DNA of 64,000 bases from an uncultured Thermoleophilia bacterium (GTDB lineage Bacteria > Actinomycetota > Thermoleophilia > UBA2241). This document shows, one piece after another, positions 9,038 through 63,168 of this stretch. Every line of letters starts with the position of its first letter. Within the stretch, counting starts at the first letter, position 1. The stretch is from contig CAWBRS010000021.1 of the NCBI GenBank assembly GCA_963791345.1, positions 208,225 to 272,224 on the forward strand, written 5' to 3'. The notes under the pieces are model-generated. The model saw nothing but the letters and a program-made list of their open reading frames with translations, was not told the origin of the DNA and searched no databases. A program made the translations under genes and the position numbers.

Positions 9038-9124
9038 CAGAGCGAGAAGGGCAAACCTGTCGTGAGGCAGGGACGCAAAGCCAGAGGTCTTGGATGCTCA
9101 AGATAGCTCGGTTGCCGAATTCAG
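9038..9124 (+). promoter_or_regulatory. Candidate c-di-GMP-I (GEMM-I) riboswitch aptamer
   Basis: GGGCAAACC (9049-9057), a 6-bp stem CCUGUC/GGCAGG closed by the GNRA loop GUGA, GGGACGCAAAGCC (9070-9082) and a 3' strand AUAGCUCGGUUGCCGAAU. This matches the Vc2-type signature as I remember it. It lies 127 nt upstream of the ATG at 9251. Confidence 0.7.
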
Positions 9125-9250
9125 ACACCGTGGTCTTCTGCCTCCACCCCTTGCCGCGCACTCCCGCCTCCCGGGCATCCTGAGACCGGTCGCCCGCTCG
9201 GCGCCCGGACGCGGGCGACGAGAGGAGCCCCCCGAGTGGAGGCGAGTGAG

Positions 9251-15005: not shown

Positions 15006-15191
15006 GGAATAGCCTCCTCCGTTGGACTGTCCACGACTCACACCCGCGTCGTCTCGTGACGACCTGGATCACTGGGGCAGTGTGATGATTCACCGGAGCG
15101 AGGAGCGCCGCAAGCACAGACTGACGCCGGTGTACGTATGAATGGTATCTTGGCGAAGGTTGCGTGAATGTAGGTACGGCAGGGGGGGATC

Positions 15192-16253
15192 GTGACCGTC
15201 ACGCACGAGTCAGAAGTAGCCGCGGGTGCCCGCTCCCCGAGCGACGACGAGTGCCTCGAGTGGCTGTGGCGGCGGCGATACTCGACCAACGGCCGAGACG
15301 CAGAGTGCCCACAGTGCGAGCGTCTGCGGCACCACCACCGCATTCGCAGCCGCCGCTCCTATGCCTGCGACCACTGTGGCCACCAGTTCTTCCCCACAGC
15401 GGGCACGCCGTTCGGCCGGTCGAGCACACCGCTGTCGACCTGGCTCGAGATCGCGCACCTGTTCATGACCGAGGCCGATGACGTCACCGCGAGAGAGATC
15501 CAGCGACGCTTTCGCCTCGAGTATCGCACCGCGCTGCGCGTCAAGGCGCGGCTGCGTGACGCGCTGGCCGATGCGACGGAGGCTCCACTCGTCACACACG
15601 CAGTCAACGACTTGTTCGGGCGTGCCGGAGCCAGACGACGAGCCTCTCGCGTGGACCCGCGTACGCGCGCCCGCGTGAACAACATCCGCGCCGTCGCCGC
15701 TCGTGTCTTCGCCCAGCGGGGCTTCGCCCACACGTGCGTGGCCGACATCGCCGCCCTGTGCGGTGAGTCCAGCGCCGTCATCCGACATCATTTCGGCAGC
15801 AAGGACGAGCTGCTCCACGCCGCCATGCTGTGGACCCAGGAGCAGGGTGCGACACGCCTGCGCGAGCTCATGCGCCGCGAGCGGGACCCCCGCCGGCGCC
15901 TTGAGGCCCTTCTTGAGATCGCGCTGCCCACCACCGACGAGATCAGAGACGAGTACCTGCTCTGGCTCGACGCGTGGGCGCGGTCACGCGGCGAGCGTCG
16001 CTTCGACCAAGAGGCGATCTTCTCGGTATGGCACAAGACCGTCGTCGCGGTGGTGCGAGAAGGTGAGGCCGCGGGTGTCTTTCGCCTCTCGCACCCGCCG
16101 GAGGACTTCGGCGACGCCTTCGTCGCGTTCGTCGACGGGCTGTCGTTCAAGGTGGTCGAGCACTATGCCGAGATGCCGCTCGATCGCGCGCAGCATCTGC
16201 TTCGGCAGTGGGTCGGCGATCAGTTGGGCCTGGTATCACCGCCCTCCGGGTAG
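15192..16253 (+). CDS. Fusion regulator: IS1595-type transposase zinc-ribbon/HTH N-terminus joined to a TetR/AcrR-family regulator
   Basis: Intact 353-aa ORF. The N-terminus ECLEWLWRRRY..CPQCE..YACDHCGHQFFPTAGTPFGRSSTPLSTWL..REIQRRFRLEYRTALRVKARLRDAL matches the N-terminal module of IS1595 transposases. No DDE domain is present. The C-terminal half carries the TetR HTH FAQRGFAHTCVADIAALCGESSAVIRHHFGSKDELL. Confidence 0.75.
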   Translation: MTVTHESEVAAGARSPSDDECLEWLWRRRYSTNGRDAECPQCERLRHHHRIRSRRSYACDHCGHQFFPTAGTPFGRSSTPLSTWLEIAHLFMTEADDVTAREIQRRFRLEYRTALRVKARLRDALADATEAPLVTHAVNDLFGRAGARRRASRVDPRTRARVNNIRAVAARVFAQRGFAHTCVADIAALCGESSAVIRHHFGSKDELLHAAMLWTQEQGATRLRELMRRERDPRRRLEALLEIALPTTDEIRDEYLLWLDAWARSRGERRFDQEAIFSVWHKTVVAVVREGEAAGVFRLSHPPEDFGDAFVAFVDGLSFKVVEHYAEMPLDRAQHLLRQWVGDQLGLVSPPSG

Positions 16254-17142: not shown

Positions 17143-17218
17143 TGGTGGCGAGGCCCAGAGTCGAACTGGGGACACCATGATTTTCAGTCATGTGCTCTAC
17201 CAGCTGAGCTACCTCGCC
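17143..17218 (-). tRNA. tRNA-Phe (anticodon GAA) with encoded CCA
   Basis: The reverse complement is GGCGAGGTAGCTCAGCTGGTAGAGCACATGACTGAAAATCATGGTGTCCCCAGTTCGACTCTGGGCCTCGCCACCA. It forms a 7-bp acceptor stem, a D-arm GCTC/GAGC, an anticodon loop CTGAAAA and a T-loop TTCGACT. Confidence 0.95.
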
Positions 17219-17418: not shown

Positions 17419-18129
17419 TCACCCCTCCGAGGTGTCGAGCTCGGACTGCTCCTGCACGACCTCGGCCTGCTCGTCGGGCAGGAAGACGTGGATCAGCTCG
17501 CGCTCCTTGCCCGGCTGCAGCACGCAGAGCACGTAGTCGCCGGGCAGGATCTCGGTGGTGCCGCGGGCCAGCATCGCGTGCCCGGCGCGGATGATCGCCG
17601 CCAGCAGCACGCCCTCGGGCAGGGCGATGTCCTGCACGTAGGTGTTGGCGAAGGCCGAGTTCTCGCTCACCTCGAGCTCGACCAGCTCGACGTTCTCGCG
17701 CTTCAGCGACAGCAGGTGGACGAACTTGTGCACCGGCAGGTGCCGGATGATGAGCGACAGCATCGCGGTCGTCGCGCAGATCGTGTTCTCGAGGCCGAGC
17801 AGGTCGAAGGTCGGCTGGTTGAACGGGTTGTTGACCCGGGCCACGACCTTGGGCACGCCGAACTTCATGTCGGCGACCTGCGCGATGATGATGTTGTCCT
17901 CGTCGTCGCCGGTCACGGCCACGACCATGTCGGCGCGGGCGATGCCGGCGCGCTCGAGCACCCAGACCTCGGTGCCGTCGCCGAAGACGAGCGACTCCGC
18001 GAGCTCCTCGGCGATCAGGTCGTAGCGCGACTTGCGCTGCTCGATGAGGGCGATCTCGTGACCGAGCCGGCGCAGCTGACGGGCGGTGTTGAGGCCGACC
18101 TTGCCTCCGCCCACGATGAGCACGAACAC
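17419..18129 (-). CDS. RCK protein with TrkA_N and TrkA_C domains (KtrA/CeoB-like), copy 1
   Basis: Intact 236-aa ORF. The Rossmann motif is MFVLIVGGGKVGLNTA. It is a paralog of 26373-27083. Confidence 0.85.
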   Translation of the reverse strand: MFVLIVGGGKVGLNTARQLRRLGHEIALIEQRKSRYDLIAEELAESLVFGDGTEVWVLERAGIARADMVVAVTGDDEDNIIIAQVADMKFGVPKVVARVNNPFNQPTFDLLGLENTICATTAMLSLIIRHLPVHKFVHLLSLKRENVELVELEVSENSAFANTYVQDIALPEGVLLAAIIRAGHAMLARGTTEILPGDYVLCVLQPGKERELIHVFLPDEQAEVVQEQSELDTSEG

Positions 18130-18132
18130 GGC

Positions 18133-18549
18133 TCAGCCCTCCCTGATCCCGCACGCCATGACGGCGTCGAACAAGGCCTGGCGCACGTCGCTCGTCGGGC
18201 AGAAGGTGCGCACCCCGGCCTTGGCGTACAGCTCGGCCCGGTGCGGGTCGTACACCCGGGCCACCGAGCAGCGCACGCCGAACTTCTTCTGCGCGATCTG
18301 CACGCAGACGAGGTTGGTGTTGTCGCCGTCGGTGCAGGCGACGAACGCGTCGGCACGGGCGATGCCGGCCTGCCGCAGCACGTCCCAGTCGAGCGCCCGG
18401 CCCTGCACGAAGTCGCCGGGGAAGTCGTCGCCGAGCAGGTAGAAGGACTCGGCGTCCTCATCGATGATGGCGACCTCGTGGCCCAGGGCCACGAGGTCAC
18501 GCGCCAGCCCGGAGCCGACGCGACCGCATCCTGCGATCACCACGTGCAT
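18133..18549 (-). CDS. TrkA_N-only RCK protein (CeoC-like), copy 1
   Basis: Motif MHVVIAGCGRVGSGLARDL. A GAGAGGTG RBS precedes the second ATG. It ends 3 nt before the next gene. It is a paralog of 27087-27509. Confidence 0.8.
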   Translation of the reverse strand: MHVVIAGCGRVGSGLARDLVALGHEVAIIDEDAESFYLLGDDFPGDFVQGRALDWDVLRQAGIARADAFVACTDGDNTNLVCVQIAQKKFGVRCSVARVYDPHRAELYAKAGVRTFCPTSDVRQALFDAVMACGIREG

Positions 18550-18628
18550 GTTCACCTCTCACCGTCGAGGGCGCCGGCGTGTCTGGCCGGCCGAGGGCGA
18601 TCTGCGCCCGCGGCCGCGCCGCCGCGCC

Positions 18629-20878
18629 CTACTCTTCGCTTCTGTTCGCGTTCTCGACGTCCGGCGCCGTCGGGGCGTTGAGCGCGCTCTCGCCACCGTC
18701 CGTGACGGTCGTCGCGCCGGCCCCGGTCACCGCGACGCCCTCGGCGGGCGCCGCCGTGTACGACCGGCGTCTTCGCTCGTCGGCGCCGCCGAGCCCTCCA
18801 TCGGGTAGAACCGCGGCACGAGGTTCACGATGACCTCGCATGGGGCGTGCTGCAACACGTAGTCCACGGTGCGCCCGAAGACGCGGTCGGCGACGCGCCG
18901 CTTCTTGACGCTGCCGAGGATGATCACCTCGGAGCGCCGTGTCGTCGCCTCGTCGACGATCGCCCGCCCCGCCTGCCGCGCGGTGATCACGATGGGCGTG
19001 AACCTGACCTTGAACTGGCTGGCGATGAGGCCGGCCGCCGCCAGCACCTTGCCGGCCTTCTCGCGCTCGTCGACCAGCCGTGCGTCCAGAGGCAGGTTGA
19101 GCGGCACCTCGAGCACGTAGAGGCCGTCGATCGCCGACTTCTTCTCGGTGGCGAGCTGGCAGGCGAGCACCATCATCTCGTCGGTGATGCGCGAGCCGAC
19201 GATCGGCACGAGGATCTGGTCGTAGTCGATGTCGGCCTGCATCGTGATGGGGATCGACGTGCGCGCCACGGTGCCGGTCAGCGAGTAGCCCTTGGCCCGG
19301 CGGTAGACCACGTACGTCACGAGGCCCACGCCGATCCAGCCGAAGGCGATGATGCGGCTCAGGCTCGCCTGATAGGCCACGATGACGAGCCAGACGGCGA
19401 ACGTGCCCAGGCCGCCGATGACGGCGGTGAGCGGCAGCGAGCCGCCGCGCAGCCGGAGGTTGAGCGGCGCGCGCCAGGGCCGCTCGAGCGCCGGCTCCCT
19501 GAAGCGCAGCACGATGACCGACAGGTGCGCCGCCGTGAACGAGATCATGGAGCCGAAGATGTAGAGGTCGGCGAGCAGCTCCGTGCTGCCGGGCAGCATG
19601 AGGACGCAGGCGGCGACGCCGAACACGATGATCGAGACGTAGGGCGTGAGCCGCCTCGGGTGGACGTGACCGAGGACGGGCGGGAGCTGACGGTGCTGAC
19701 CCAGCGAGTAGGTCAGCCGCGACACACCGATGAGGCCGGCGTTGGTGCGCGATGACGAGGATCGTCGCCGCAAGGATGCCGACCCAGGGGGCGAGGATGG
19801 CCCGCATCCAGCCGACGCTGTCGGGCATGAAGCGCACCATCCCGAGCACCGGGTCTTCGAGGTAGTTGCTGCCCAGCTGGGTCCCGTAGAGGCGCGTCAC
19901 CTCTTCGCCGTCGATCACCTCCACCTCGCCGGTCGGCTCCTGCTCGGGGATGACGGTCGCGTCGCCGACCTCCTCGACCGGCACGTACACGGTGACCTCG
20001 GGATCGCTCGCCAGCACCCACGTGCCCTCCGGCTCGCCGGGCGCCACCTCGACCGGCTGGGTCAGGCCGCTGACCGGGTCGACGGGGACGACGTTCGAGC
20101 CCACGCGCATCACCGAGAGACCGGCGAGCGGCATGCCGATGTAGACGACGAGGACGACGACGATCACGTAGTTGATGGCACGCGGCACGTCGCGCCCCGG
20201 GTTCGTCGCCTCCTCGGCCATGTTGGAGACGGTCTCGATGCCCGTGTAGGCGACCGTGCCGATGGCGAGACCGTAGAGGAACTGCTCCCAGGTCGGCGCG
20301 ACGCCCCAGTGGATCTGCTCGAGCAGGATCCGGGGCTCGAGCAGCAGCACGAGGGCGATGGCCACGATGAGGAGCTGGGTGGCCAGGTCGAGCACGGCGA
20401 GGACGATGTTGAGCCGCGCCGCCTCCTTGATGCCGACCACGTTGACGACGATCAGGGCGGCGGCGACGAGGATGCCGCCGATGGCGTTGTAGGGGAACTC
20501 CTTGAGGACGGGCACGAAGACCGACAGGTAGTGCGGCACGAAGAGGGCGGAGATGGCGATCGTGGCCGTGTAGACGAGCATCTGGCCCCAGCCGATGCCG
20601 AAGCTCACGAACTCGTTGAAGGCGCGCCGTGCGAAGCTGGACGCGCCGCCCGCCTCCGGCATCGCCGCGGTGGCCTCGGCGTAGCTCCACGCCGTGCACA
20701 TGAAGAGCAGGCCGGTGATGATGAAGACCAGAGGCGTCGCGCCCATGGCGGACACGGCCACGACGCCGAGGGCGTAGTAGATCGACGAGCCCACGTTGCC
20801 GTAGGCCGTGCTGAAGAGCGCCGGGACGCCCAGGACCTTGTGGAGGCTCTCGCCCTCTCTGTGTTTGCGTCGCGCCAC
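18629..20878 (-). CDS. APC-superfamily permease fused to a C-terminal universal stress protein domain, copy 1; frameshifted as sequenced
   Basis: The N-terminus is MARRKHREGESLHKVLGVPALFSTAYGNVGSSIYYALG, followed by multiple TM segments. The Usp part is ILVPIVGSRITDEMMVLACQLA..EVIILGSVKKR. The middle section (about 18760-19745) lies in another frame, which implies two indels. Confidence 0.8.
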   Translation of the reverse strand: MARRKHREGESLHKVLGVPALFSTAYGNVGSSIYYALGVVAVSAMGATPLVFIITGLLFMCTAWSYAEATAAMPEAGGASSFARRAFNEFVSFGIGWGQMLVYTATIAISALFVPHYLSVFVPVLKEFPYNAIGGILVAAALIVVNVVGIKEAARLNIVLAVLDLATQLLIVAIALVLLLEPRILLEQIHWGVAPTWEQFLYGLAIGTVAYTGIETVSNMAEEATNPGRDVPRAINYVIVVVLVVYIGMPLAGLSVMRVGSNVVPVDPVSGLTQPVEVAPGEPEGTWVLASDPEVTVYVPVEEVGDATVIPEQEPTGEVEVIDGEEVTRLYGTQLGSNYLEDPVLGMVRFMPDSVGWMRAILAPWVGILAATILVIAHQRRPHRCVAADLLAGSAPSAPARPRSRPPEAAHALRLDHRVRRRRLRPHAARQHGAARRPLHLRLHDLVHGGAPVGHRAALQGAGARAALARAAQPPAARRLAAAHRRHRRPGHVRRLARHRGLSGEPEPHHRLRLDRRGPRDVRGLPPGQGLLADRHRGAHVDPHHDAGRHRLRPDPRADRRLAHHRRDDGARLPARHREEVGDRRPLRARGAAQPASGRTAGRRAREGRQGAGGGRPHRQPVQGQVHAHRDHRAAGGAGDRRRGDDTALRGDHPRQRQEAARRRPRLRAHRGLRVAARPMRGHREPRAAVLPDGGLGGADERRRRSYTAAPAEGVAVTGAGATTVTDGGESALNAPTAPDVENANRSEE

Positions 20879-20970
20879 TCAGGTCACGTCGGGGGCGCGA
20901 CGTCACCGTCGGCTCCCGGGGCATGCGTCCGCGCCCACGGGCCCGGCGCCCGCCCCTCCATGAGGCGCGA

Positions 20971-23140
20971 CTATAGCAGGCTCGGAGCCGGGAGGCACGG
21001 CGCCGGGAGGCACGGCGCCGGCCCGCCGGCGTCGCCTCCCCGATGCTCGCCCCGTCGGTGCGGTAGTCGCGCGGCACGAGGTTGAGCAGCACCTCGCAGG
21101 GCGCGTAGTCGATCACGTGGTCGACCGTGCTGCCGAAGGCGCGTTCGGCGATGCGCCGCTTCTTGACCGTGCCGAGGATGATGACCTCGGAGCGGCGCTG
21201 CGTCGGCCTCCTCGACGATCGCCCGCCCGGCGTGGCGCGCCGTGACGATGATCGGGGCGAAGTGCACCTTGAACTGCTCGGCGATGAGGCCGGCCGCGCC
21301 GAGCACGCGCTCGGCGCGCGCGCGCTGCTCGCGGAGCTCGGCGTCGAGCGGCAGGTTCAGCGGCACCTCGATCACGTAGAGCGCGTCGATCGCCGAGCCC
21401 TTCTCGGTGGCGAGCTGACAGGCGAGGACCATCATCTCGTCGGTGATGCGGGTGCCGACGATGGGCACGAGGATGCGGTCGTAGTCGATGTCGGCCTGCA
21501 TCGAGGCCGGCACGACGACGCGGGCGATGGTGCGCGTCAGCGAGTACCCCTTGAGCTTGCGGTAGACGACGTAGGTGACGATGCCGACGCCCATCCAGAG
21601 GAAGCCGATGAGGCGGCCCTCGGCGTGCGTGGCCACGACCACGCACCACACGGTGAAGGTGCCCGGCGCCGCCGATGATCGACAGCAGCGGCAGGGAGTA
21701 CCCGCGCACGCGCACGTTGAGCGGGCTGCGGAACGGCCGCGGGGTGTCGGGCTCCTTGATGCGCAGGGCGACGACGGCGACGTGCGCCGTGGTGAACGAG
21801 ATCATCGCCCCGAAGGCGTAGAGGTCGGCGAGCAAGCTCGTGCTGCCGGGGATGATGAGGAGGCAGGCGATGAGGCCGAACACGATGATCGCCACGTACG
21901 GCGTGAGCCGCCGCGGGTGGATGCGACCGAGCAGCGGCGGCACCTGCCGGTGGACGCCGAGCGAGTACGCCAGGCGTGACACGCCGATCAGCCCCGCGTT
22001 GGTGGCGATCACGAGGATCGTCGCCGCGAGGATGCCGACCCACGGGGCGAGGATCGCCGCGCAGCCACGCCAGCTCCTCGGGCATGAACTTGACGATGCC
22101 GAGGACCGGGTCCTCGACGTACGCGCTGCCGAGCTGGGTGCCGTGGAGCTCCGTGACCCAGCCGTCGCCCTCCTGGACGACCTCGCCGGTCGGCTCCTGC
22201 GCTGAGGTATCACGTAGTCGTCGCCCTGTCGCTCGACCGGCACGTAGACCGGCTGTCCGGGGTCGGCGGCGAGCACGTACGTGCCCTCGGGCTCGCCGGG
22301 CACGACCTCGGTCGCCACCGTTCTGTGCGTCGCCGGGTCGACGGCCACGGTGTTCGAGCCGACGGGCATGGCGGAGAGCGCGACGAGCGCCATGCCGATG
22401 TACACGACGAGCACGGTGGCGAGCACCATGTTGATCGCCCGCGGCACGTCGCGGTCGGGGTTGGCGGCCTCCTCGGCCATGTTCGAGATGGTCTCGATGC
22501 CGGTGTAGGCGATCGGTGCCGATGGAGATGCCGTAGAGGAGCTGGCTCCAGGTCGGCGCCGTGCCGAGGTCGATCTGCTCGATCAGGATGCGGCGGCTCG
22601 AGCAGCAGGATCACGCCGATCACCATGACCAGCACCTGGGTGGCGAGGTCGAGGGCGGCGAGCAGGACGTTGAGTCGCGCCGCCTCCTTGATGCCGATCA
22701 CGTTGACGACGACGAGCGACGAGGATCACGGCGATGCCGACGATCGTGTCGTAGGGGTACGTCCTGAGGGCCGGCCAGAAGACGGCCATGTAGTGCGGCA
22801 CGAAGAAGGCCGAGATGGCGATGGTGACGATGTAGTCGAGCATGAGCGCCCAGCCGGCGCCGAAGCTGACGAACTCGTTGAAGGCGCGGCGGGCGAAGCT
22901 CGACGAGCCGCCCGCCTCGGGCACCATCGCCGTCGCCTCGGCGTACGACCAGGCGGTCGTGATGAAGAGCAGCCCGGTGAGGGCGAAGACGATCGGCGTC
23001 GCGCCCATCGCGTACAGCGCGACGACGCCGAGGGCGTAGTAGATCGACGAGCCGACGTTGCCGTAGGCGGTGCTGAACAGCGCGGGGACGCCGAGCACCT
23101 TCTTGAGGCTCTCCCCTTCTCTGTGCTTGCGTCTGGCCAT
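20971..23140 (-). CDS. APC permease-Usp fusion, copy 2; at least 6 frame breaks as sequenced
   Basis: The N-terminus is MARRKHREGESLKKVLGVPALFSTAYGNVGSSIYYALG. Pieces are found in ORFs 22583-23140, 22210-22701, 21113-22480 and 20971-21651. The Usp part is ILVPIVGTRITDEMMVLACQLATEKGSAIDALYVIEVPLN. Confidence 0.7.
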
Positions 23141-23200
23141 GGTCTACCTCTGGAGGACGTACGGGTGTGGTCGCGCGATGGGCGAGGAGGCGGCGCGCGC

Positions 23201-23359
23201 TAGAGCGTGCGCCAGCGGAACGCGGCGTAGACCAGGAGCAGGATGCCGGCGACGAGCTGCATCGAGATCGGGCCAGAGACCGCCGGACGCGCCGTAGACG
23301 ACGAGGGCGACGCCCAGCACGGCGGCCACGATGGTGAAGATCTGTCGGGTCAGGCGCAT
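23201..23359 (-). CDS. Possible tiny 2-TM membrane protein (about 52 aa) with one frame break
   Basis: Read from the DNA as MRLTRQIFTIVAAVLGVALVVYGASGGLWP | ISMQLVAGILLLVYAAFRWRTL*. It has no recognisable family. Confidence 0.3.
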
Positions 23360-23452
23360 GTCCAAAGAAGAGCCGGCGCCGTGGGCGCCGGCCTTGGACA
23401 TCGAATGTAGCACCGCGCCATGGCCCTTACAAGCGGCGGATGGCCCCGCGCG

Positions 23453-24955
23453 CTACCGCCGCCAGAACACCGGCGAGAAGAGCAGAATGAGCGTGAAGAG
23501 CTCCAGGCGCCCGGCCAGCATGCAGAACGAGAGGATCAGCTTCGCGGCGGGGTGCATCCAGGCGAAGTTGTCGAAGGGGCCGATGTCGGCCAGCCCGGGG
23601 CCCACGCCCCCCATGGTCGTGGCGACGGCGGACATGGCGGTCGCGAAGTCGGCCCCCGTGAGCGACACCCCGGCCACGGCGATCACGTAGGTGATCAGGT
23701 ACATCCCGATGAACGCCGAGACCGACTGCAGCATGCCGGCCGTCACCGCCTTGCCGCCGAGGCGCGGCGGCGCGAGGGCATGGGGGTGCACGGTGCTGAA
23801 CAGCGCGCGCAGCGCCGCCTTGGAGAAGATGAGCACCCGGATCGCCTTCATCGCTCCGGCCGTCGAGCCGGCGCAGCCGCCCATGAACAGCAACATGAAG
23901 AGGATGTACTGGGTCAGCTCCGGCCACTTCTCGTAGTCGGCCGTCGCGAAGCCGGTGGTCGTGCCGGTCGAGACCACCTCGAAGAAGGCGTCCCGCACGG
24001 CGCGCGTCGCGGACACGTCCGAGGTGGCCCACACGAGCAGAGCGATGATGAGACTGCTGCCGATCAGCACGAGCGTGAAGAAGCGCCATTCCGGGTCCTT
24101 CAGCAGGGTGCGCGGCCGCCGGTTCAGGACCGCCCAGTGCAGCGAGAAGTTGGTCGCCGACAGCCACAGGAAGAGCACGATGACCCAGTCGATGTAGGCG
24201 CTGTCGAAGTAGGCGATGCTGGTGTTCTTGGTCGAGAAGCCCGCCGGTGCCGATGGCGCCGAACATGTGACAGAGGGCGTCGAAGAGGTTCATCCCGCCG
24301 AGAAGCAGGAGGACGGTGAGCACGGCCGACAGACCGAGGTAGATGAGCCAGAGGATGCGCGCCGTGCTGCGGATCCGCGGCGCGCAGGCGGTCGACCTCG
24401 AGACCGGGGGCCTCGGCGCGGTAGAGCTGCATGGCGCCCACGCCGAGCAGGGGGAACAGGGCGATGTAGAGCACCACGAAACCCATCCCCCCGAGCCAGT
24501 GGGTGAAGCTGCGCCAGAAGAGGAGACCCTTCGGCAGCGCCTCGACGTCGGCGATCACGCTCGATCCGGTCCCCGAGAAGCCGCTGACGCACTCGAACCA
24601 GGCGTCGACGGGGCCGAGGACGTCGGCGAAGACGAAGGGCAGCGTCCCCACGAAGCAGACGAGGAGCCAGCCCAGGCCGACGACGGCGAAGCCCTCGCGA
24701 CGCGAGAGGCGGAGGTGCGCGGTGCGCAGGAGGAAGAAGCCGGGCGCGCCGACCGCCACGCCGATGAGGATCGTCGAGGTGAAGGCCTCGACGGTCGCCG
24801 TCTCGCCGTAGTAGGCGGCCACGGCGAGCGGGATGGCCAGGGTGGCGGAGGCGCACAGGACCAGGCTGCAGAGCAGGAAGCCGACGCGCCGGGCCGGCCC
24901 GAGCGAGGCCGGCGACCGCGCCCGTGCTCCCTGGTGACGACGGCGACGTGGGCAT
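23453..24955 (-). CDS. trkH: Trk-type K+ uptake membrane subunit TrkH; frameshifted as sequenced
   Basis: Four pore-loop-like motifs are present: [18 protein letters not shown] (in an alternate frame), [10 protein letters not shown] and TTMGGVGPG. Frame breaks lie near 24915, 24400 and 24200-24260. Confidence 0.8.
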
Positions 24956-24971
24956 GGCGCGAGGAGCGGCG

Positions 24972-26321
24972 TCAGTCCGCGGCCAGCAGGCGCTGCAGGC
25001 GCGGTATCAGGGCCGGACGGGCGAAGAGCACGACGCGGTCGTCCTCCTGGATGACGGTGGCGCTGTCGGGGATGATGACCTCGTCGCCGCGCACGATGGC
25101 GCCGACCAGCGACCCGTGCGGCATGTGCAGGAGGGCGAGCGGCAACCCGACGATGCCGGAGCCCTTGGCGGCGACGAACTCGATGCCCTCCACGAGGTCC
25201 TCGCGGAGGGTGCGCACGGCGAGCACGCGTCCCCGGCGCGCGAGCTGCAGGATCGGGCTCAGGGCCGAGAGCAGGGGACTGACGACGACGTCGACGCCGA
25301 TCGCCGAGGCGAACGGCATGTAGTCGGGCGTGTCGACGAGAGCGACGACGCGGCGCGCCCCGAGCCGCTTGGCGAGCAGGGCCGTGAAGACGTTGTCGGT
25401 CTCGTCCCCCAGCGCGGCGACGAACATGTCGGCGCGCGCCACGCCCTCGTCCTCGAGCAACCTCTGATCCATGCCGTCCCCGTGAAGCACGAGAGTGTCG
25501 CCCAAGGCCCGCGTGAGCTCCTCGCAGCGGGCGGCGTCGCGCTCGACGATCTTGGTGTGGATCCCCGCCGCCGCGAGCCGGCGGGCGATGGCGACGCCCT
25601 CGCGCCCGCCGCCCGAGACGATGACGCGGCGCGTGCGCACCCAGCGCTTGCCGAGGCGCGTCATCGCCCTGCGCACCGCGTCGTGGGCGGCGACGAGGAA
25701 GAGGGTGTCGCCGGCCTCCAGCCGCAGGTCGGCGGACGGCGGGTTCACCACCTCGTCCCGGTACACGCCGGCGACCATGACCTTCTCGTTGGGGCGGCGG
25801 CCGAGATCGGTGACCGGCTTGCCCAGCATGGGCGAATCGGCGTCGACCTCGACGCCGACCGCCTTGACGCGTCCCTCGACGAACTCGAGGATGTCGCTCG
25901 CCCCCGGCGTGCCGGCGAGGGCCGCGACGGTCCACGCGACCTCCTCCTCGGGGCTGATGACGAGGTCGATGCTGAGCGAGCTCTTGTCGATGATGCCGGC
26001 GGCGCCCAGGTAGGCCGGGTCGTGAAGGCGCGCCACGCGCACGATCTTCGACGACAGCGTCTCGGCGATCAGGCAGGCGACGATGTTGGTCTCGTCGCTG
26101 GCCGTGACGGCGACGAGGACGTCGGCCGTGGCCAGCCCGGCCTCGAGCAGCACCGACGGGGTGCTCCCCTTGCCGACGAGGGCGCCCACGTCGAGCGAGT
26201 CCTGGAGGCGCCGCAACGCCTCCTCGTCCTGGCCGACGACCACCACGTCGTGACCCTCCTCCGAGAGCTTGCGGGCCACGTAGAAGCCGAGCACCCCGGA
26301 GCCCGTGACGACGATCTTCAC
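24972..26321 (-). CDS. trkA: Trk system regulatory protein TrkA (double N-C-N-C architecture)
   Basis: Intact 449-aa ORF with two Rossmann motifs, MKIVVTGSGVLGFYVA and VIVSGGGREGVAIA. Confidence 0.9.
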   Translation of the reverse strand: MKIVVTGSGVLGFYVARKLSEEGHDVVVVGQDEEALRRLQDSLDVGALVGKGSTPSVLLEAGLATADVLVAVTASDETNIVACLIAETLSSKIVRVARLHDPAYLGAAGIIDKSSLSIDLVISPEEEVAWTVAALAGTPGASDILEFVEGRVKAVGVEVDADSPMLGKPVTDLGRRPNEKVMVAGVYRDEVVNPPSADLRLEAGDTLFLVAAHDAVRRAMTRLGKRWVRTRRVIVSGGGREGVAIARRLAAAGIHTKIVERDAARCEELTRALGDTLVLHGDGMDQRLLEDEGVARADMFVAALGDETDNVFTALLAKRLGARRVVALVDTPDYMPFASAIGVDVVVSPLLSALSPILQLARRGRVLAVRTLREDLVEGIEFVAAKGSGIVGLPLALLHMPHGSLVGAIVRGDEVIIPDSATVIQEDDRVVLFARPALIPRLQRLLAAD

Positions 26322-26372
26322 CTCTGCCCTCCCGGCTGCCGCCGTTCGCTGCGCGTCATCACCGCACGACCC

Positions 26373-27083
26373 TCAGGTGCCCAGTGCGTCGGAGCTCGCC
26401 TCGGCCTGTACATCCTCGGGCTTGCGACTGGGGAGGAAGCTGCGGATCAGCTCCTTCTCCTTGCCGGGCTGGAGCAGGCAGAGGACCTGGTCGCCGGGCA
26501 GCAGGACCTCGTCGCCGTGGGCGAGGACCGCCGTGCCCCGGCGCAGGATCGCGGCCACGAGCACGCCGGACGGCAGGCGGATGTCCTTGACCGCGGTGTG
26601 GGCCGAGGGCGTCTCCTCGGTGACGGCGATCTCGACGAGCTCGACGTTCTCGCGCTTGAGCGAGAGGAGCGGCACGAACTGATGGACCGGCAGCTCGTGC
26701 ATGATCATCGACATCAGCATCGTCGCCGCGCAGACCGTCGCGTCGACGTCGAGGAGGTCGAAGGTCGCCTGGTTGCGCGGGTTGTTGACCCTGGCGACGA
26801 CCTTCGGCACCTTGTGCTTGAGCTTGGCGATCTGCGAGATCACGACGTTGTCCTCGTCGTCCCCCGTGACCGCGACGACCAGGTCGGCGCGGGCGATGCC
26901 GGCCTTCTCGAGGACCCAGATCTCGGTACCGTCGCCGAAGAGCATGCGCTCGCCGAGCTCGGGGAGCAGCAGGTCGTAGCGCGAGCGGCGCTGCTCGACG
27001 ACGATGACCTCGTGCTCGAGACGCGTGAGGCTGCGGGCGACGTTGAGCCCGACCTTACCGGCGCCGACGATGAGGACGAACAT
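26373..27083 (-). CDS. RCK protein with TrkA_N and TrkA_C domains (KtrA/CeoB-like), copy 2
   Basis: Intact 236-aa ORF starting MFVLIVGAGKVGLNVA. It is roughly two-thirds identical by eye to 17419-18129. Confidence 0.85.
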   Translation of the reverse strand: MFVLIVGAGKVGLNVARSLTRLEHEVIVVEQRRSRYDLLLPELGERMLFGDGTEIWVLEKAGIARADLVVAVTGDDEDNVVISQIAKLKHKVPKVVARVNNPRNQATFDLLDVDATVCAATMLMSMIMHELPVHQFVPLLSLKRENVELVEIAVTEETPSAHTAVKDIRLPSGVLVAAILRRGTAVLAHGDEVLLPGDQVLCLLQPGKEKELIRSFLPSRKPEDVQAEASSDALGT

Positions 27084-27086
27084 CGC

Positions 27087-27509
27087 TCACTCCCCCTTCC
27101 CGTCGACCCGGCAGGAGCGCACGACGTCGACCATCATCGTCCGCGCCTCCATGGTCGGGCACACCGTGCGGATCCCCGTCGTCTCGAAGAGCTGCGCCCG
27201 CAGCGGGTCGTAGACGCGGGCGATGGCGCAGGGGACCTCGAACTCGCGCGCCGCGATCAGGGCGCAGACGATGTTCGTGTTGTCGCCGTCGGTCGCCGCG
27301 GCGAAGGCGTCGGCGCCCTCGATGCCCGCCTTGCGCAGCACGTCCCAGTCGATGGCCGGGCCGACCACGTACTGGCCGTGGAAGTCGTCGCCCAGCAGGT
27401 CGAAGGCGTCGGCGTCCTCGTCGATGACGGCCACGTCGTGGCCCTCGGCGGCCAGCTGCCTCGCCATGCTCGACCCGACCCGGCCGCAGCCGGCTACGAT
27501 GATGTACAT
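27087..27509 (-). CDS. TrkA_N-only RCK protein (CeoC-like), copy 2
   Basis: MYIIVAGCGRVGSSMARQLAAEGHDVAVIDED.. is the tail of ORF 27087-29765. The start is 8 nt after the permease stop. Confidence 0.8.
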   Translation of the reverse strand: MYIIVAGCGRVGSSMARQLAAEGHDVAVIDEDADAFDLLGDDFHGQYVVGPAIDWDVLRKAGIEGADAFAAATDGDNTNIVCALIAAREFEVPCAIARVYDPLRAQLFETTGIRTVCPTMEARTMMVDVVRSCRVDGKGE

Positions 27510-27517
27510 CTCCTGCC

Positions 27518-29671
27518 TCACTCTCTCGCCGGTCCGTTGCCCGCCGGAGCTTGCGGTGCCCGCTCCGCCGGGTCGGATCCGAGTTCTGCCGCCGACCCGT
27601 CCATCGGGTAGTCCGACGGGACGAGGTTGACGAGGACCTCGTCGGGGGCGTTGCGCAGCACGAAGGTCAGCGTGTCGCCGAAGAGGCGCTCGCCGGAGGG
27701 TCGTCGCTTCACGGCCCCCATGATGATCACGTCGGCGTGCCACTCCTGGGCCGTCTCCACGATGGCCCGGCCCGGCTGGCGCGCCACGACGAGGTGCGGC
27801 CACGCCTCGACGCCGAAGTCGTCGGCGACCGCCATGGCCGAATCGAGGATCTGCTGTCCGCGCCGCTTCTCCGCGTCGAGCGGCGCGTCGAGAGGCTGCT
27901 CCATGGGGACCTCGACGACGTACACCGCGTCGATGGTCGCCCCCTTCTCGGCCGCGAGCTGGCAGCCCAGCACCATCATCTCGTCGGTCAGCCGCGTGCC
28001 CAGCACGGGCACGAGGATGTGCTGGTAGTCGACGTCGGAGACGGCCGTCGACGGCAGCTTCGTCTCCTCGGGCTGCCGCAGCAGCGGCCGCCGCGACCGG
28101 CGCCGGTAGATCACGTACATCGCGAGGCCTCCGGCGAGCCAGGCGAAGCCGACGAGGCGACCCGTGGAGTGGGTCGCCACCATCAGGACCCAGATCAGCG
28201 CCGTGGCCGCGCCGCCGACCACCGAGGGCAGCGGCAGGGCGGCGCCGCGGAACCTCACGCTGAAGGGCACGACGAAGGGTCGCGGCATCCCGCGCTCGCG
28301 ATAGCGCAGCACGATGACCGAGAGGTGCGTCAGGGTGAACGCCAGCATGGCCCCGAACCCGAAGAGCCCGAGGAGCGACCGCGAGTCGGTCAGCACGACG
28401 ACCGCCGCGGTGACGAGGCCGAAGAGCACGATGCCCGCGGCCGGCGTCATGCGCGCGGCGTACAGGCGACCCAGGGCGACCGGGACCTGGTGGTGCCGGG
28501 CGAGGGAGTACACGATGCGGGCCGAGCCTCCCACGATGGCGTGCGCGGCGAGGAAGAGCGCGAGGGCCGCGACCAGCGCGACCCACGGCGTGGCCACGTC
28601 CTTGAACCAGTCGAGCTCGTCGGGCAGACCGTCGACGAGACCGATCAGGGGATCTTCGAGGTAGGCGCTGCCGAGCTCGCTGCCGTACAGCCGCGTCACC
28701 GGCTGCCCGGCCTCGTCGTAGACGTCGCCGGTCGGCTCCTGCGCGGGGATCACGTACCCGGAGCCGTCGTCTTCGACGGGCACCACGACCGTGGTCTCCG
28801 GGTCGTCGGCGAGCACGAAGGTCCCCGGCCGCTCGCCCGGCGTGACGGGGACCGGCTGGGTCAGCCCGGTCTGCGCATCGACGGGGACGACGTTGGACCC
28901 CACGGGCAGCGCGGCGAGCGCGGCGACGCTGAGGCCCACGGCCAGGATGACGATCACCGGCAGCACGACGTTGATGGTCAGCGGGATGTCGCGCCCCGGG
29001 TGCGACGCGCTCTCGGCGCGGCTCGAGATCGCGTCCAGCCCCGTGAACGCCGCCGCCGCCAGCGGCACGGCGTACAGCAGATTCCCCCAGGTCGGAGCGA
29101 CGCCGAGGTCGATCTGGTCGAGGGCCAAGCCGACCCGGAACTGGGTCACGAGGCCGAGCACGAGGAGGACGGTGAGCGTGGCCAGCCCGAGGACGGCCGT
29201 CAGCGTGCTCAGACGCACGGACTCCTGAAGCCCGAGGACGTTCAGCACCACGAGCACCACCACGACCGCGACGCCGATCAGCATGTCGTACGGCGCCTCG
29301 CGCAGCGAAGGCCACACCGCGCCCAGGTAGTACGGGATGAACCAGCTCGCGATGGCCACCAGGATGACGCAGTCGAGGAGCAGCGCCCACGCGGCGACGA
29401 ACCCGGTCAGGGGGTCGAAGGCGCGGCGCGCGAAGCTGGTGACGCCGCTGGCCTCGGGCATCGCCGCCGACGCCTCGGCGTACGACCAGGCGGTGAGGAG
29501 AAAGACGAGGCCGACCACGGCGATGACGATCGGCGCCGCGCCGAGCGCGTACAGCGCGATCCCCCCGAGCACGACGTAGATCGACGAGCCCACGTAGCCG
29601 AAACCGGTGCCGAAGAGCCCGCCGATGCCGACCACGCCGCCGGCCGGGTAGCGATACCTCCTCCGCGTCAC
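27518..29671 (-). CDS. APC permease-Usp fusion, copy 3 (intact)
   Basis: The 735-aa ORF starts at 29725. I prefer the GTG at 29671 (VTRRRYRYPAGGVVGIGGLFGTGFGYVGSSIY) by alignment with copies 1 and 2. The Usp part is ILVPVLGTRLTDEMMVLGCQLA..DVIIMGAVKRR. Confidence 0.85.
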   Translation of the reverse strand: MTRRRYRYPAGGVVGIGGLFGTGFGYVGSSIYVVLGGIALYALGAAPIVIAVVGLVFLLTAWSYAEASAAMPEASGVTSFARRAFDPLTGFVAAWALLLDCVILVAIASWFIPYYLGAVWPSLREAPYDMLIGVAVVVVLVVLNVLGLQESVRLSTLTAVLGLATLTVLLVLGLVTQFRVGLALDQIDLGVAPTWGNLLYAVPLAAAAFTGLDAISSRAESASHPGRDIPLTINVVLPVIVILAVGLSVAALAALPVGSNVVPVDAQTGLTQPVPVTPGERPGTFVLADDPETTVVVPVEDDGSGYVIPAQEPTGDVYDEAGQPVTRLYGSELGSAYLEDPLIGLVDGLPDELDWFKDVATPWVALVAALALFLAAHAIVGGSARIVYSLARHHQVPVALGRLYAARMTPAAGIVLFGLVTAAVVVLTDSRSLLGLFGFGAMLAFTLTHLSVIVLRYRERGMPRPFVVPFSVRFRGAALPLPSVVGGAATALIWVLMVATHSTGRLVGFAWLAGGLAMYVIYRRRSRRPLLRQPEETKLPSTAVSDVDYQHILVPVLGTRLTDEMMVLGCQLAAEKGATIDAVYVVEVPMEQPLDAPLDAEKRRGQQILDSAMAVADDFGVEAWPHLVVARQPGRAIVETAQEWHADVIIMGAVKRRPSGERLFGDTLTFVLRNAPDEVLVNLVPSDYPMDGSAAELGSDPAERAPQAPAGNGPARE

Positions 29672-30134
29672 GCCGCCACCGCTCCGGCCGCGCGACGCCC
29701 GGCCCGCCGCCCGGCCGACGGGCACCGGCAGACGGACCGTGACACGCAGCAGCGCGGCCCCGCACCGCTCAGAGCGGTGCGGGCAGCCTCGCCGCGTGCG
29801 GCATCAGACAGACGTACGACCTGTCGCGTCTCGTGCATAGCCATCCAAGGAACAGCCGGCGCCGCGGCGCCGGCCCGCAAGCCGAATCGACCGGCGGGCC
29901 AGGCCCCCTGCGATCGGCCCGGAAGCCGCGCCGCGGCGCGGCGCGGTCTCCCGGGCCAAGGGCCTGCTCGCATCGTCGTCACTACGTGAACAAGACATCA
30001 AGATAGGGCAAGCGACATAAAGAAGTCGTAAAGGCGACGCGCTCGCCGAAGCGCAGCGGCTCGCAGAGCGGCGAGCCGCTTCCTCCGGCGCACGGCGCGA
30101 GCTCGGCCTCGCGTGACCCTCGCCGACCGCGGAC

Positions 30135-30204: not shown

Positions 30205-32312
30205 CTACTGGACCAGGAACGGGATCACGAGCAGGGCGACGATGTTGATGACCTTGATCATCGGGTTGATGGCCGGGCCGGCGGTGTCCTTGTAGGGGTC
30301 GCCGACCGTGTCGCCGGTGACCGCCGCGGCGTGGGCCTCGGAGCCCTTGCCGCCGTAGGCGCCGTCCTCGATGAGCTTCTTGGCGTTGTCCCACGCCCCG
30401 CCGCCCGAGGTCATCGAGATGGCGAGGAAGATGCCGGTGATGATCGTGCCCATGAGCACGCCGCCGAGCACCAGGTAGGCCTTGTCCCAGAAGACGAGCG
30501 CGACGATGATGGGCGTGAGCACCGGGATCGCGGCCGGCAGCATCATCTCGCGGATCGCCGACTTGGTGACGATGTCGACGGCCTTGCGCGTAGTCCGGCT
30601 TGCCCGTGCCGTCCATGATGCCGGGGATCTCGCGGAACTGACGCCGCACCTCTTCGACCACCTGCCCGCCGGCCTTGCCGACGGCCTTCATGCAGAGCGA
30701 GGCGAAGAGGTAGGGCAGCAGGCCCCCGAGCAGCAGGCCGATGAGGACCCACGGCTCGTTCACGCGGAACATCTCGATCACGCCCTCGCCGAAACTCTCC
30801 TTCAGGTCGTTCGTGTACGAGACGAAGAGGATGAGGGCGGCGAAGCCGGCCGAGCCGATCGCGTAGCCCTTGGTGATGGCCTTGGTGGTGTTGCCGACCG
30901 CGTCGAGCGGGTCGGTGGTGTTGCGCACCTCTTCGGGCAGGTCGGCCATCTCGGCGATGCCGCCGGCGTTGTCGGTGATGGGGCCGTAGGCGTCGATGGC
31001 GACGATGATCCCGGTCATCGAGAGCATGGCCATGACGGCCACGGCGATGCCGTACAGCCCGGCCTCGCCGCCGCCGGCGACCTCGTAGCTCACGAGGATG
31101 CCGGCGCCGATGGCGACCACGGGCAGGGCCGTCGACTGCATCGAGACGGCGAGGCCCTGGATGATGTTGGTCGCGTGCCCGGTGACGCTCGCCTTGGCGA
31201 TGCTCTTGACCGGGTTGTAGCGCGTCGCCGTGAAGTACTCGGTGATGATGACGATCAGGGCGGTCACGACGATGCCGCTGACGGCACACCAGAACATGCG
31301 GTTCACGCTCGGCATGCCGGCGGCCTTGACGGCGTCGTTGTCCAGCATCCAGTAGGTGACCGGGTAGAAGAGCGCGATCGCGATGACGGCCGCCGCGGCG
31401 AGCCCCTTGTAGAGCGCGTTCATGATGTTCTGGCTGCTGCCGAGGCGCACGAAGAAGGTGCCGATGACGCTGGCGATGATCGACACGCCGCCGAGGACCA
31501 GCGGGTAGGTGACGGCGACGCCGACCTCGGGCCAGAAGAGGAAGGCGAGCAGCATCGCCGCCACGGCGGTGACGGCGTAGGTCTCGAACAGGTCGGCCGC
31601 CATGCCGGCGCAGTCGCCGACGTTGTCGCCGACGTTGTCGGCGATGACGCCGGGGTTGCGCGGGTCGTCCTCGGGGATGCCGGCCTCGACCTTGCCGACC
31701 AGGTCGGCGCCGACGTCGGCGGCCTTGGTGAAGATGCCGCCGCCGACGCGGGCGAAGACCGAGATGAGGCTGCCGCCGAAGCCCAGGCCGACGAGCGCGT
31801 AGACCGCGTAGTCGCCCCAGAACTTCGTGCCCAGCCAGTAGTACACGGCCACGCCGAACAGCGCCAGACCGACGACCAGCAGACCGGTCACGGAGCCCCC
31901 GCGGAAGGCGACCTTGAGCGCCGGGCCGAGACCCTGCTTGGCCGACTCGGCGGTGCGCACGTTGACGCGCACGCTGACCATCATGCCGATGTAGCCCGCG
32001 GCGGCCGACAGGCAGGCGCCGACCACGAAGCCGACGGCGGTCACGACGCCGTACGTCCAGCCGCGCTCGGTCAGCCCCAGAGCCACCAGCAGGATGACGA
32101 ACACGACCGACGCCGACCATGGCGATGGTCCTGTACTGCCGGTTCAGGTAGGCCTTGGCGCCCTCCTGCACGGCGCCGGCGACCTCCTGCATCTTGGCGT
32201 CGCCTGCCGGCAGGGCCATCAGCCAGCGGATCAGCACCACGCCGTACGCGACGGCGACGATGGCGCAGATCACGGCGACGAGCATCGCGTTGTCAGACAC
32301 CCAGCTTCCCAC
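30205..32312 (-). CDS. hppA: Membrane-bound ion-translocating pyrophosphatase; two frame breaks
   Basis: Motifs [54 protein letters not shown] and [22 protein letters not shown]. An AAAGGAG RBS precedes the GTG at 32312. Frame breaks lie near 32100 and 30590. Confidence 0.9.
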
Positions 32313-35468: not shown

Positions 35469-35793
35469 GCGCCGGCGGCGCCGGGCCGGCGACAGCCGGC
35501 CCGGCGCCGCCCCCGCGCCCCGGGGCGCGAGCCCCCGAGCCGCGCGACCCCGGCCGCGCTCCGGGCCGCGGCCCACGAGCCGCGACCCCGGGACGACAGC
35601 CTACTCGCGCGATGATAGGCTTTGATACATCCGACGATCGGCCGATCGGGATGTGAGTCGGGGCTCCCTTCGGCGCCCGCAGGCAGGTCGTCGCCGGCCC
35701 TTCGCTCCTCACCTGTGCCGGCGCGCGACCGCGGCGCCGCATCCGTCCCGTCCGCATCCTTGCCGAGCGCTCAGCGCGACGAAGGAGTGGAAC

Positions 35794-56200: not shown

Positions 56201-56284
56201 GTCGAGCTGGGCTGGGCCGCACAGGTGGCCCTCGCTGAGGCGAGGCGCTGCCTGCGTTGCGACTACGGCAAGTACGGCTCGTGA
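53226..56284 (+). CDS. hydB: NuoF-like flavoprotein subunit (HydB/HndC-like) fused to a GltD/NfnB-like NAD(P)H:FAD oxidoreductase module; about 5 frame breaks
   Basis: The N-terminal 2Fe-2S Trx-like part is [14 protein letters not shown]. The NuoF core carries [27 protein letters not shown] and [10 protein letters not shown]. The GltD-like part carries [55 protein letters not shown] and a C-terminal [13 protein letters not shown]. Breaks lie near 53600, 55085, 55420, 55935 and 56165. Confidence 0.8.
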
Positions 56285-60740: not shown

Positions 60741-60743
60741 GGC

Positions 60744-62044: not shown

Positions 62045-62275
62045 CCCCTTGCACAAGCGGCCGCACGATGCGTTAGATACTGAGCGCAGCTGAGGCCAGT
62101 ACCGAACGTGGATCCTGTGGAGTGAGCGGCCAGCACTCGACGTCACTCTCGTCCGTCCCTGCCTCTTCGGCACCCGCCGTGGTCGTCCGCGACCGGCGCT
62201 CGTGTGCGCCTCGCGACGGTCGCGCGGCGGGCGACCCGCCTCGCCAGGGGGAACAGAAACGGACTGAAGGAGTGC

Positions 62276-62651: not shown

Positions 62652-62664
62652 GAGAGGACTCCAG

Positions 62665-63165: not shown

Positions 63166-63168
63166 GCC

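Follow-up and report, generated by a model that had tools for sequence, protein, structure and literature searches.

What transport system is formed when a permease fused to a universal stress protein (Usp) domain is encoded next to two small RCK proteins, and what does it carry? The question is raised by a 64-kb stretch of DNA (64,000 nucleotides, hereafter the window) from an uncultured Thermoleophilia bacterium of the Actinomycetota (GenBank assembly GCA_963791345.1, contig CAWBRS010000021.1, positions 208,225 to 272,224), in which three related genes for an APC-superfamily permease with a C-terminal Usp domain lie among genes for TrkA-type proteins. They are arranged as two operon-like units. 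Module A comprises permease–Usp copy 3, a gene for a protein made of a TrkA_N lobe only (RCKN3), one for a protein with TrkA_N and TrkA_C lobes (RCKNC3), and trkA and trkH, while module B comprises a small open reading frame (ORF), permease–Usp copies 2 and 1 in tandem, and a second pair, RCKN1 and RCKNC1. An earlier note, made from the sequence alone, had named the domains of these proteins, all of which were borne out by Pfam, and the 3-nt gap that it had seen between RCKN and RCKNC is present in both triads. In bacteria, K+ channels and antiporters are switched mainly by RCK proteins. Our answer is that the RCK-associated APC–Usp transporter module is real, conserved and uncharacterised, and we give a probability of roughly 0.5 to its being an RCK-regulated importer of a cation, probably K+, or of an osmolyte.

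The first part of this answer is carried by the recurrence of the arrangement. A permease-anchored scan of GTDB, with one genome per species, provided 80 loci, all from uncultured Thermoleophilia, Gaiellales, Solirubrobacterales or unclassified Actinomycetes. In 42 of them, RCKN and then RCKNC follow on the same strand, at most 260 nt from the last permease–Usp gene, and about 30 of these RCK-linked loci harbour permease–Usp genes in tandem, like copies 2 and 1 of the window. The closest relatives of copy 3 (loci L001, L002, L003, L009 and L087) display an identical five-gene string, permease–RCKN–RCKNC–trkA–trkH. In L087, for which the gene calls are independent, the products are a 752-aa permease–Usp, a 114-aa TrkA_N protein and a 243-aa TrkA_N + TrkA_C protein, then TrkA and TrkH, with intergenic gaps of 14, 3, 11 and 12 nt. 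Relatives of copies 1 and 2 (L004–L006, L008, L010–L014 and L016) possess one or more permeases and the RCK pair, without trkH.

The reverse scan, anchored on RCKN, yielded 80 metagenome loci, three of them cut at a contig edge and 77 assessable. A permease or Usp hit is found directly upstream of RCKN in 62 of the 80, and the upstream gene is a permease–Usp in 61 of the 77. Exceptions are four loci with RCKN upstream of the permease, four pairs of the mycobacterial CeoB/CeoC type without an adjacent transporter, and a few pairs with unrelated neighbours. The permease–Usp plus two-RCK arrangement, which the earlier note had described in this genome, thus recurs well outside it, and the linkage is strong yet lineage-dependent. 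Coarse clustering of the permease N-terminal halves did not cleanly separate RCK-linked from RCK-less members, so that we do not ascribe the linked permeases to a single clade. With the permease as query, tblastn found no match among the plasmids of PLSDB. A variant organisation was noticed in L136 (3549–6300), and also in L140, L150 and L160, where a TrkA_N-only protein of about 130 residues is encoded directly upstream of the permease, itself followed by a separate ORF matching the permease C-terminal (Usp) region; RCKNC was not detected downstream.

The same gene strings bear on another reading, in which TrkH/TrkA, or some other K+ system, has the two small RCK proteins as additional regulatory subunits, their genes adjoining that of the permease through co-regulation only, with no action on the permease. 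Module A and its orthologues do place the RCK pair between the permease and trkA–trkH in one tight string, and RCK proteins can form mixed rings (PMC11067040). However, trkH is absent within 10 kb from module B and from most RCK-linked loci, and what stays the same upstream of the pair from locus to locus is a permease–Usp gene (or genes for the K+ transporter KimA plus Usp), not trkH. Furthermore, papers on tuberculosis describe the Trk system of Mycobacterium tuberculosis as two TrkA proteins only, CeoB and CeoC, and name neither a TrkH nor any other membrane or pore subunit. We therefore regard an extra-subunit role as very unlikely, and consider it quite probable that the RCK pair is functionally coupled to the permease.

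With regard to the history of the locus, the earlier note had spoken of an amplified module. A recent amplification was rejected, since the copies have diverged and each module has orthologues elsewhere. The copy 3 protein is 46–52% identical to copies 1 and 2. Copies 1 and 2 are closer to each other, with 78% nucleotide identity over 2.09 kb (the sole figure retained from a low-gap-penalty DNA alignment too noisy for placing indels). In the metagenome-assembled genome that contains L001 and L010, the two modules lie on separate contigs. A membrane H+-pyrophosphatase (H+-PPase) gene stands directly upstream of the module B tandem permeases in L010 and L011, and upstream of module A in the window. 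On account of this divergence and of the separate orthologous modules in related genomes, we view the window as two old, distinct and conserved modules lying side by side; a division into two transcription units would fit with the terminator-like hairpin 3' of trkH.

The earlier note had also counted three paralogous permease–Usp genes as complete ORFs. Their paralogy is far beyond chance, but copy 3 is the sole intact permease gene of the three. Searches by tblastn with copy 3 and intact orthologues revealed a frame change in copy 1 near 19746 (the switch falling at 19746–19748). Pfam detects the permease N-half in the ORF 18629–20878 (AA_permease_2, 97 bits), and the C-half and Usp in the ORF 18727–19773 of another frame; the 749-aa ORF of copy 1 is consequently a read-through in a non-coding frame, and the product after frame correction is about 716 aa long. 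In copy 2, queried with copy 3 and the intact orthologues from L010 and L011, the frame changes near 22733, 22621, 22517, 22200, 22075, 21673 and 21220, and the 3' end is uncertain. Two frameshifts, near 24381 and 24240, affect trkH, to which the intact L001 TrkH matches in three frames by tblastn, and two others affect the H+-PPase gene, as judged by tblastn with the ORFs upstream of the L010 and L011 modules. The tiny ORF with two transmembrane (TM) segments between trkH and copy 2, which the earlier note had listed, does exist, but its reading frame requires one frame change, near 23296.

These breaks are most likely indel errors of the assembly, for copies 1 and 2 a likelier cause than gene decay. 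We read them so because the switches are window-wide, the third-position G+C content (GC3) is preserved, the identity to orthologues is maintained, and related metagenome-assembled genomes are broken too. A GC3 frame plot indicates that the coding frame switches about 110 times in the 64 kb, far above the expected number of genes; the regions 33490–35585, 55064–56269 and 58714–63938 are examples. GC3 remains at 0.95–1.0 in every fragment of copy 2, and these fragments are 57–82% identical to orthologues, a level comparable to that of copy 1. Contigs of related metagenome-assembled genomes carry their own frameshifts (one permease of L010, the L003 TrkA and the L009 permease).

Alternatively, copy 2 would be a genuine pseudogene, perhaps together with copy 1 and trkH; module B and Trk would then be on their way to being lost, and only module A would work. 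What speaks for decay is the uneven distribution of the damage, with about seven frame changes in the 2.1 kb of copy 2 versus none in the combined 6.4 kb of copy 3, trkA and the four RCK genes, and the position of the inspected junctions outside long homopolymers. Such decay is nevertheless unlikely: the switches extend over the whole window and into a housekeeping gene such as that of H+-PPase, GC3 is kept, no internal deletion was seen, and the sister long-contig genomes are similarly broken; moreover, the 78% nucleotide identity of copies 1 and 2 could mislead read polishing. The breaks carry a warning for annotation, as long ORFs in this high-GC, indel-prone assembly are partly wrong-frame read-throughs.

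Table 1. Features of modules A and B and of their borders, listed from the upstream to the downstream end of the minus-strand genes (positions within the window).
Feature	Module and state	Position	Strand	Evidence
Membrane H+-pyrophosphatase	Just upstream of module A; two frameshifts	30208..32312	-	Pfam H_PPase 637 bits
Permease–Usp copy 3	Module A; intact	27518..29725	-	Pfam AA_permease_2 96 bits, Usp 67.7 bits
RCKN3, TrkA_N-only, CeoB-like, 140 aa	Module A	27087..27509	-	Pfam TrkA_N 93.6 bits
RCKNC3, TrkA_N + TrkA_C, CeoC-like, 236 aa	Module A	26373..27083	-	Pfam TrkA_N 95 bits, TrkA_C 41.4 bits
trkA, canonical, full-length (N-C-N-C), 449 aa	Module A	24972..26321	-	Pfam
trkH	Module A; two frameshifts, start approximate	23453..24957	-	Pfam TrkH on two fragments; tblastn
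Terminator-like hairpin	3' of trkH, just upstream of the small ORF	23371-23393		Terminator scan
Small ORF, two predicted TM segments, about 52 aa	Module B	23200..23359	-	Three-frame translation; GC3 frame plot
Permease–Usp copy 2	Module B, first of tandem; about seven frame changes	21027..23140	-	tblastn
Permease–Usp copy 1	Module B, second of tandem; one frameshift	18727..20878	-	Pfam; tblastn
RCKN1, TrkA_N-only, CeoB-like, 138–140 aa	Module B	18133..18555	-	Pfam TrkA_N 89.4 bits
RCKNC1, TrkA_N + TrkA_C, CeoC-like, 236 aa	Module B	17419..18129	-	Pfam
tRNA-Phe (GAA)	Downstream end of module B	17143..17218	-	ARAGORN; Rfam tRNA 71 bits

What the RCK pair is can be stated more closely. Probe sequences were used solely to retrieve real database proteins. 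By BLASTP, the RCKN proteins are 44–53% identical to CeoB and 48–50% to the first of two Streptomyces proteins (A1), and the RCKNC proteins 32–38% identical to CeoC and to the second Streptomyces protein (A2), the cross-pairs being weaker. With the proteins of Mycobacterium shimoidei, RCKN3 shares 53% identity and RCKN1 44% (CeoB), and RCKNC3 37% (129 bits) and RCKNC1 32% (CeoC). Given this reciprocal pattern and the matching gene order, the window pair is orthologous to CeoB/CeoC. Between the modules, RCKN1 and RCKN3 share 60% identity, and RCKNC1 and RCKNC3 64%. The GCGRVG motif is common to RCKN, CeoB and A1, and in all four RCK proteins of the window the nucleotide-site motif is present, namely, GxGxxG with an acidic residue at the end of strand beta-2 (GCGRVG...IDED and G[AG]GKVG...[IV]EQR). 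CeoB and CeoC each carry both N and C lobes, whereas RCKN1 and RCKN3 have TrkA_N only; the alignments indicate that the CeoB-like member has lost its TrkA_C lobe in the window lineage. The TrkA_N-only proteins display conserved cysteines within GCGRVG, around alignment column 96, within a VCPT motif and in an xC at the C-terminus. The VCPT and xC cysteines belong to the tail standing in place of the TrkA_C lobe, and neither CeoB nor the Streptomyces homologue has them. These cysteines may constitute a redox or metal site.

The neighbours of such pairs in other genomes are informative as to the transporters that they accompany. In M. shimoidei (L086, 4926–8378), a gene for a 685-aa AA_permease_2 protein is divergent from those of the 224-aa and 220-aa TrkA_N + TrkA_C proteins, with dut nearby, so that the earlier note is right, for this species, in placing an APC-type membrane protein beside ceoB/ceoC. 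This permease aligns end to end with Bacillus subtilis KimA (E 4.5e-110), keeps the SSDALSSVAY motif, and retains D36, Y43, E233 and Y377. The CeoB/CeoC analogy nevertheless involves a different APC subfamily, since the neighbour is of KimA type, lacks a Usp domain and is 22% identical to copy 3. The M. shimoidei KimA homologue occupies the position of M. tuberculosis Rv2690c, and no paper stating so was found. A KimA homologue also occurs in L125 (23–7103), where genes for a 761-aa KimA protein (E 2e-112) and a 298-aa tandem-Usp protein are located upstream of a TrkA_N-only RCKN and an RCKNC, in the position of permease–Usp; from this gene content, KimA plus a separate Usp replaces the permease–Usp fusion there. 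The L125 cluster additionally holds a P-type ATPase fragment and a Usp-containing ORF. KimA homologues adjoin permease–Usp arrays in five other loci (L059, L069, L123, L143 and L149). The gene for a P-type cation ATPase of 936–938 aa directly precedes the RCK pair in L007 and in two Streptomyces genomes, its stop codon overlapping the start codon that follows (L084 5185–9313, L088 2194–6313 and L007 11035–15142). The Streptomyces ATPase–RCK loci have dormancy-like surroundings, including Usp, a nitroreductase, a GAF histidine kinase, and Rv1733c-like, HSP20 and CBS proteins.

Turning to the permease itself, AA_permease_2 scores are 96 bits for copy 3 and 97 bits for the N-half of copy 1, against a cutoff of 27. 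The AlphaFold model of copy 3 (predicted local distance difference test, pLDDT, 86.6) has 12 TM helices and a C-terminal Usp domain, and its Foldseek TM-scores, normalised to the target, of 0.80–0.85 to GkApcT, BasC and ApcT correspond to a LeuT-type 12-TM fold. The top Foldseek hit is KimA, over 700 aligned columns including the cytoplasmic domain, with LAT/CAT transporters scoring about equally. A beta-rich insertion of about 75 residues is confidently modelled in the TM7–TM8 loop (copy 3 residues 258–330, window positions about 28680–28900), which standard APC topology would place outside the cell. This insertion was seen only in the clade of about 700–750 aa, including all three window copies, and is absent from relatives of about 610–640 aa. 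By sequence, the window permeases lie outside the KimA family: phmmer against KimA gives an E-value of 3.2e-8 over residues 26–252 only (TM1–6), compared with 4.5e-110 and 2.1e-112 for true homologues. In a profile–profile comparison with KimA, the membrane domain is significant (99% probability) and the C-terminal domain is not.

The residues of the KimA pocket, the roles of which have been described along with the essential character of Asp36 for K+ binding (PMC6994465), were mapped from that work onto about 121 members of the permease–Usp family. The equivalent of the gate residue Y43 is Tyr in 119 of 121 members, that of T230 is Thr in 117, and that of the proton-coupling residue E233 is Glu in 115; Y118 corresponds to Tyr, S125 to Ser, T121 to Thr or Val, and Y377 mostly to Tyr. 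At the positions of Y43, T121, S125, T230, E233 and Y377, GkApcT and xCT have I, A, A, I/V, D and T/M. The permease pocket therefore appears KimA-like save for one residue that KimA cannot lose, a resemblance that is suggestive, not decisive.

Several observations weigh against an RCK-gated cation importer. As to the permease, the KimA D36 (Kup D23) column is occupied by Pro, Gly, Ser or Asn and never by an acidic residue in the 121 or so members, and TM1 retains the canonical APC G-S-S/G segment. Copy 3 itself is divergent and retains few of the KimA-like hydroxyl residues: the Y43, Y118, T121, S125, E233 and Y377 positions read F, C, L, A, D and F. The family profile favours amino-acid transporters, with E-values of 2.8e-30 for xCT and 3e-29 for GkApcT versus 8.3e-16 for KimA. 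A homology between the KimA C-terminal domain and Usp was rejected at the sequence level (hhalign probability 0.3%). ATP-binding members of the Usp family share the motif G-x2-G-x9-G-(S/T), which is absent here, the Usp domain reading G-x2-[KR]-x9-G-x-T. Regarding the RCK proteins, a regular-expression search for the cyclic di-AMP (c-di-AMP) signature of RCK_C, (I/L)(I/L)x2DxRx5N(I/L)(I/L) (from PMC10117811), found no match in them, and c-di-AMP regulation through RCK_C was rejected for that reason. Since the pair also follows a P-type ATPase, it specifies no substrate on its own. As for the linkage, about ten RCK pairs have no adjacent transporter (several long ORFs upstream of such orphan pairs have no Pfam hit, or give a wrong-strand artefact such as NAD-GH), and the Solirubrobacterales-type permease–Usp proteins (about 36% identity, about 610–640 aa) usually lack RCK neighbours.

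Part of this evidence is what would be expected if the imported substrate were organic, for instance a compatible solute, a polyamine or an amino acid (glutamate, which is the counter-ion of K+, being one example), and if the RCK pair did no more than tie its uptake to the K+ or energy status of the cell. The best sequence matches are CAT/LAT-type amino-acid transporters, relatives are annotated at source as 'APA family basic amino acid/polyamine antiporter', and, besides the TM1 segment and the lack of the essential aspartate, the TM6 G-x-E motif of canonical APC transporters is kept. TeaD, a Usp protein that regulates an ectoine transporter, is among the structural matches, and TrkA_C domains also occur on transporters of substrates other than K+, in the AAE family. 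On the other hand, no curated amino-acid model comes near its cutoff: all ten NCBIfam amino-acid/polyamine transporter hits fall far below, the best, TIGR00909, reaching 100.8 bits for a cutoff of 556.8. In profile comparison, which the earlier note had proposed, the permeases are closer to amino-acid-type APC proteins than to KimA, and they reach no curated equivalog. In addition, four pocket positions agree with KimA and not with GkApcT or xCT, a true KimA homologue substitutes for the permease in L125, and K+ genes dominate the neighbourhood. An organic substrate consequently seems rather unlikely, albeit of some weight, and K+ or another small cation is the substrate that we would put forward, tentatively and at somewhat less than even odds.

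For the RCK-regulated importer that we favour, the following mechanism can be proposed. RCKN and RCKNC would assemble into a heteromeric ring binding ATP/ADP or NAD(H); heteromeric RCK rings are documented for KtrA/KtrC and for RCK heteromers of Thermotoga (PMC11067040). This ring would bind dimeric permeases from the cytoplasmic side, with the Usp domains as the probable docking site, and turn transport on or off as a function of the energy, nucleotide or ionic state; the products of tandem permease genes may pair as a heterodimer. The substrate, K+ or some other small cation, would enter together with H+. If it is K+, the system would be a functional analogue of KimA plus CeoB/CeoC, and would belong, along with TrkAH and H+-PPase, to an island for K+/osmotic homeostasis. 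In line with a role in K+ handling, a trkA–trkH pair lies alongside in no fewer than 11 genome and 6 metagenome loci. In M. tuberculosis, deletion of ceoBC is reported to disrupt K+ homeostasis (PMC11601456), and mutants of ceoB and of the adjacent Rv2690c have a common phenotype in transposon sequencing (PMC12216072). In a broader and more speculative version, which we hold with less than even confidence, the CeoB/CeoC-type pair would be a portable nucleotide-sensing gating module of Actinomycetota, used on cation transporters of three or more unrelated classes, namely, KimA-type symporters, P-type ATPases and APC–Usp permeases; the latter would form a hitherto unrecognised family of RCK-gated importers of K+ or small cations, their ion being bound by a KimA-like hydroxyl-rich pocket devoid of the TM1 aspartate. 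A corollary, should this be true, is that Rv2690c, as a KimA homologue, would serve as the membrane subunit of 'Trk' (CeoBC) in M. tuberculosis.

Further details concern the layout of the window, whose G+C content is about 70%. The likely start of copy 3 is at 29671, giving a protein of 717 aa that is 100% identical to a database entry (P0001), and not of 735 aa; 8 nt separate its stop codon from the start of RCKN3. Apart from TrkA, which scores 414 bits on the NCBIfam TrkA equivalog NF007039 (cutoff 293), no protein of the modules falls in any curated NCBIfam family, and no homologue of the small 2-TM ORF was found. The promoter and terminator scan provided a single useful hairpin, the one 3' of trkH. 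Neither a KimA gene nor a P-type ATPase gene is present within the 64 kb. An Rfam scan of the whole window at gathering thresholds found no ydaO/c-di-AMP or other riboswitch upstream of the permeases, its hits being limited to the tRNA-Phe and a distant c-di-GMP riboswitch. The latter, a c-di-GMP-I-GGC aptamer (RF03167) at 9041–9120 on the plus strand (69.9 bits, gathering score 59, E 1.7e-14), lies just upstream of a plus-strand coding run beginning near 9217. At 13767–16253, a minus-strand clostripain-family (Peptidase_C11) gene adjoins an unusual plus-strand ORF joining an IS1595-type zinc ribbon with TetR_N and TetR_C_6, a combination that could be an artefact given the indel errors of the assembly.

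Within the library searched, no paper was found to describe an APC–Usp permease with TrkA proteins, nor one to link KimA with CeoB, and the statement of the earlier note that the system is experimentally uncharacterised stands, as no paper characterising it was found. A review on Streptomyces lists KimA-like and RCK_C proteins at adjacent locus numbers, left unconnected. Secondary transporters of the CPA2 family (KhtTU, CpeAB) are already known to be RCK-controlled; a coupling of RCK to APC proteins, if true, would widen the range of such targets and add a new regulated uptake system in the Thermoleophilia and Gaiellales, Actinomycetota that are abundant in soil. With respect to the missing pore subunit of the M. 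tuberculosis 'Trk', the comparison offers a testable answer, namely, the conserved KimA-type neighbour.

Among known systems, CeoB/CeoC (Rv2691/Rv2692) is comparable to the window in having two adjacent RCK genes with the B-like one first, an APC-fold neighbour, and the GxGxxG plus acidic nucleotide-binding site. It differs in that CeoB has a TrkA_C lobe, lacking in RCKN, and that the mycobacterial permease is a full-length, Usp-less KimA homologue encoded divergently, whereas that of the window is fused to Usp and encoded upstream on the same strand. KimA, the B. subtilis K+/H+ symporter of the KUP family (PDB 6S3K and 8B70), shares with the permease–Usp proteins an APC/LeuT-fold TM domain followed by a C-terminal cytoplasmic alpha/beta domain, and the equivalents of Y43, Y118, T121/S125, T230, E233 and Y377 are largely kept; however, Asp36 is missing, the C-terminal domain is a Usp without sequence similarity to that of KimA, and the window has neither the ydaO riboswitch, as judged by Rfam, nor the c-di-AMP signature. 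The CAT/LAT-type transporters (GkApcT, 5OQT; BasC, 6F2G; ApcT, 3GIA) provide the best profile and TM-domain matches and have Pfam AA_permease_2 in common with the window permeases, but they have no Usp fusion, RCK partners or extracellular beta insertion, and their residues differ where the pockets of the window family and of KimA agree. In Trk/Ktr, where a TrkH/KtrB pore is associated with a TrkA/KtrA ring, the cytoplasmic RCK proteins likewise harbour a nucleotide site; the pore is of the channel-like SKT type, in contrast to the APC-fold secondary transporter that would be the partner in the window, and one of the two RCK subunits of the window is reduced to its N lobe. Finally, KhtTU, CpeAB and Kef are secondary transporters under the control of an RCK protein, either fused or encoded separately in the same operon (PMC10117811), as proposed for the window. 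Their fold is CPA2 and not APC, a single RCK protein is involved, and several of them use c-di-AMP, for which the window RCK proteins lack the signature.

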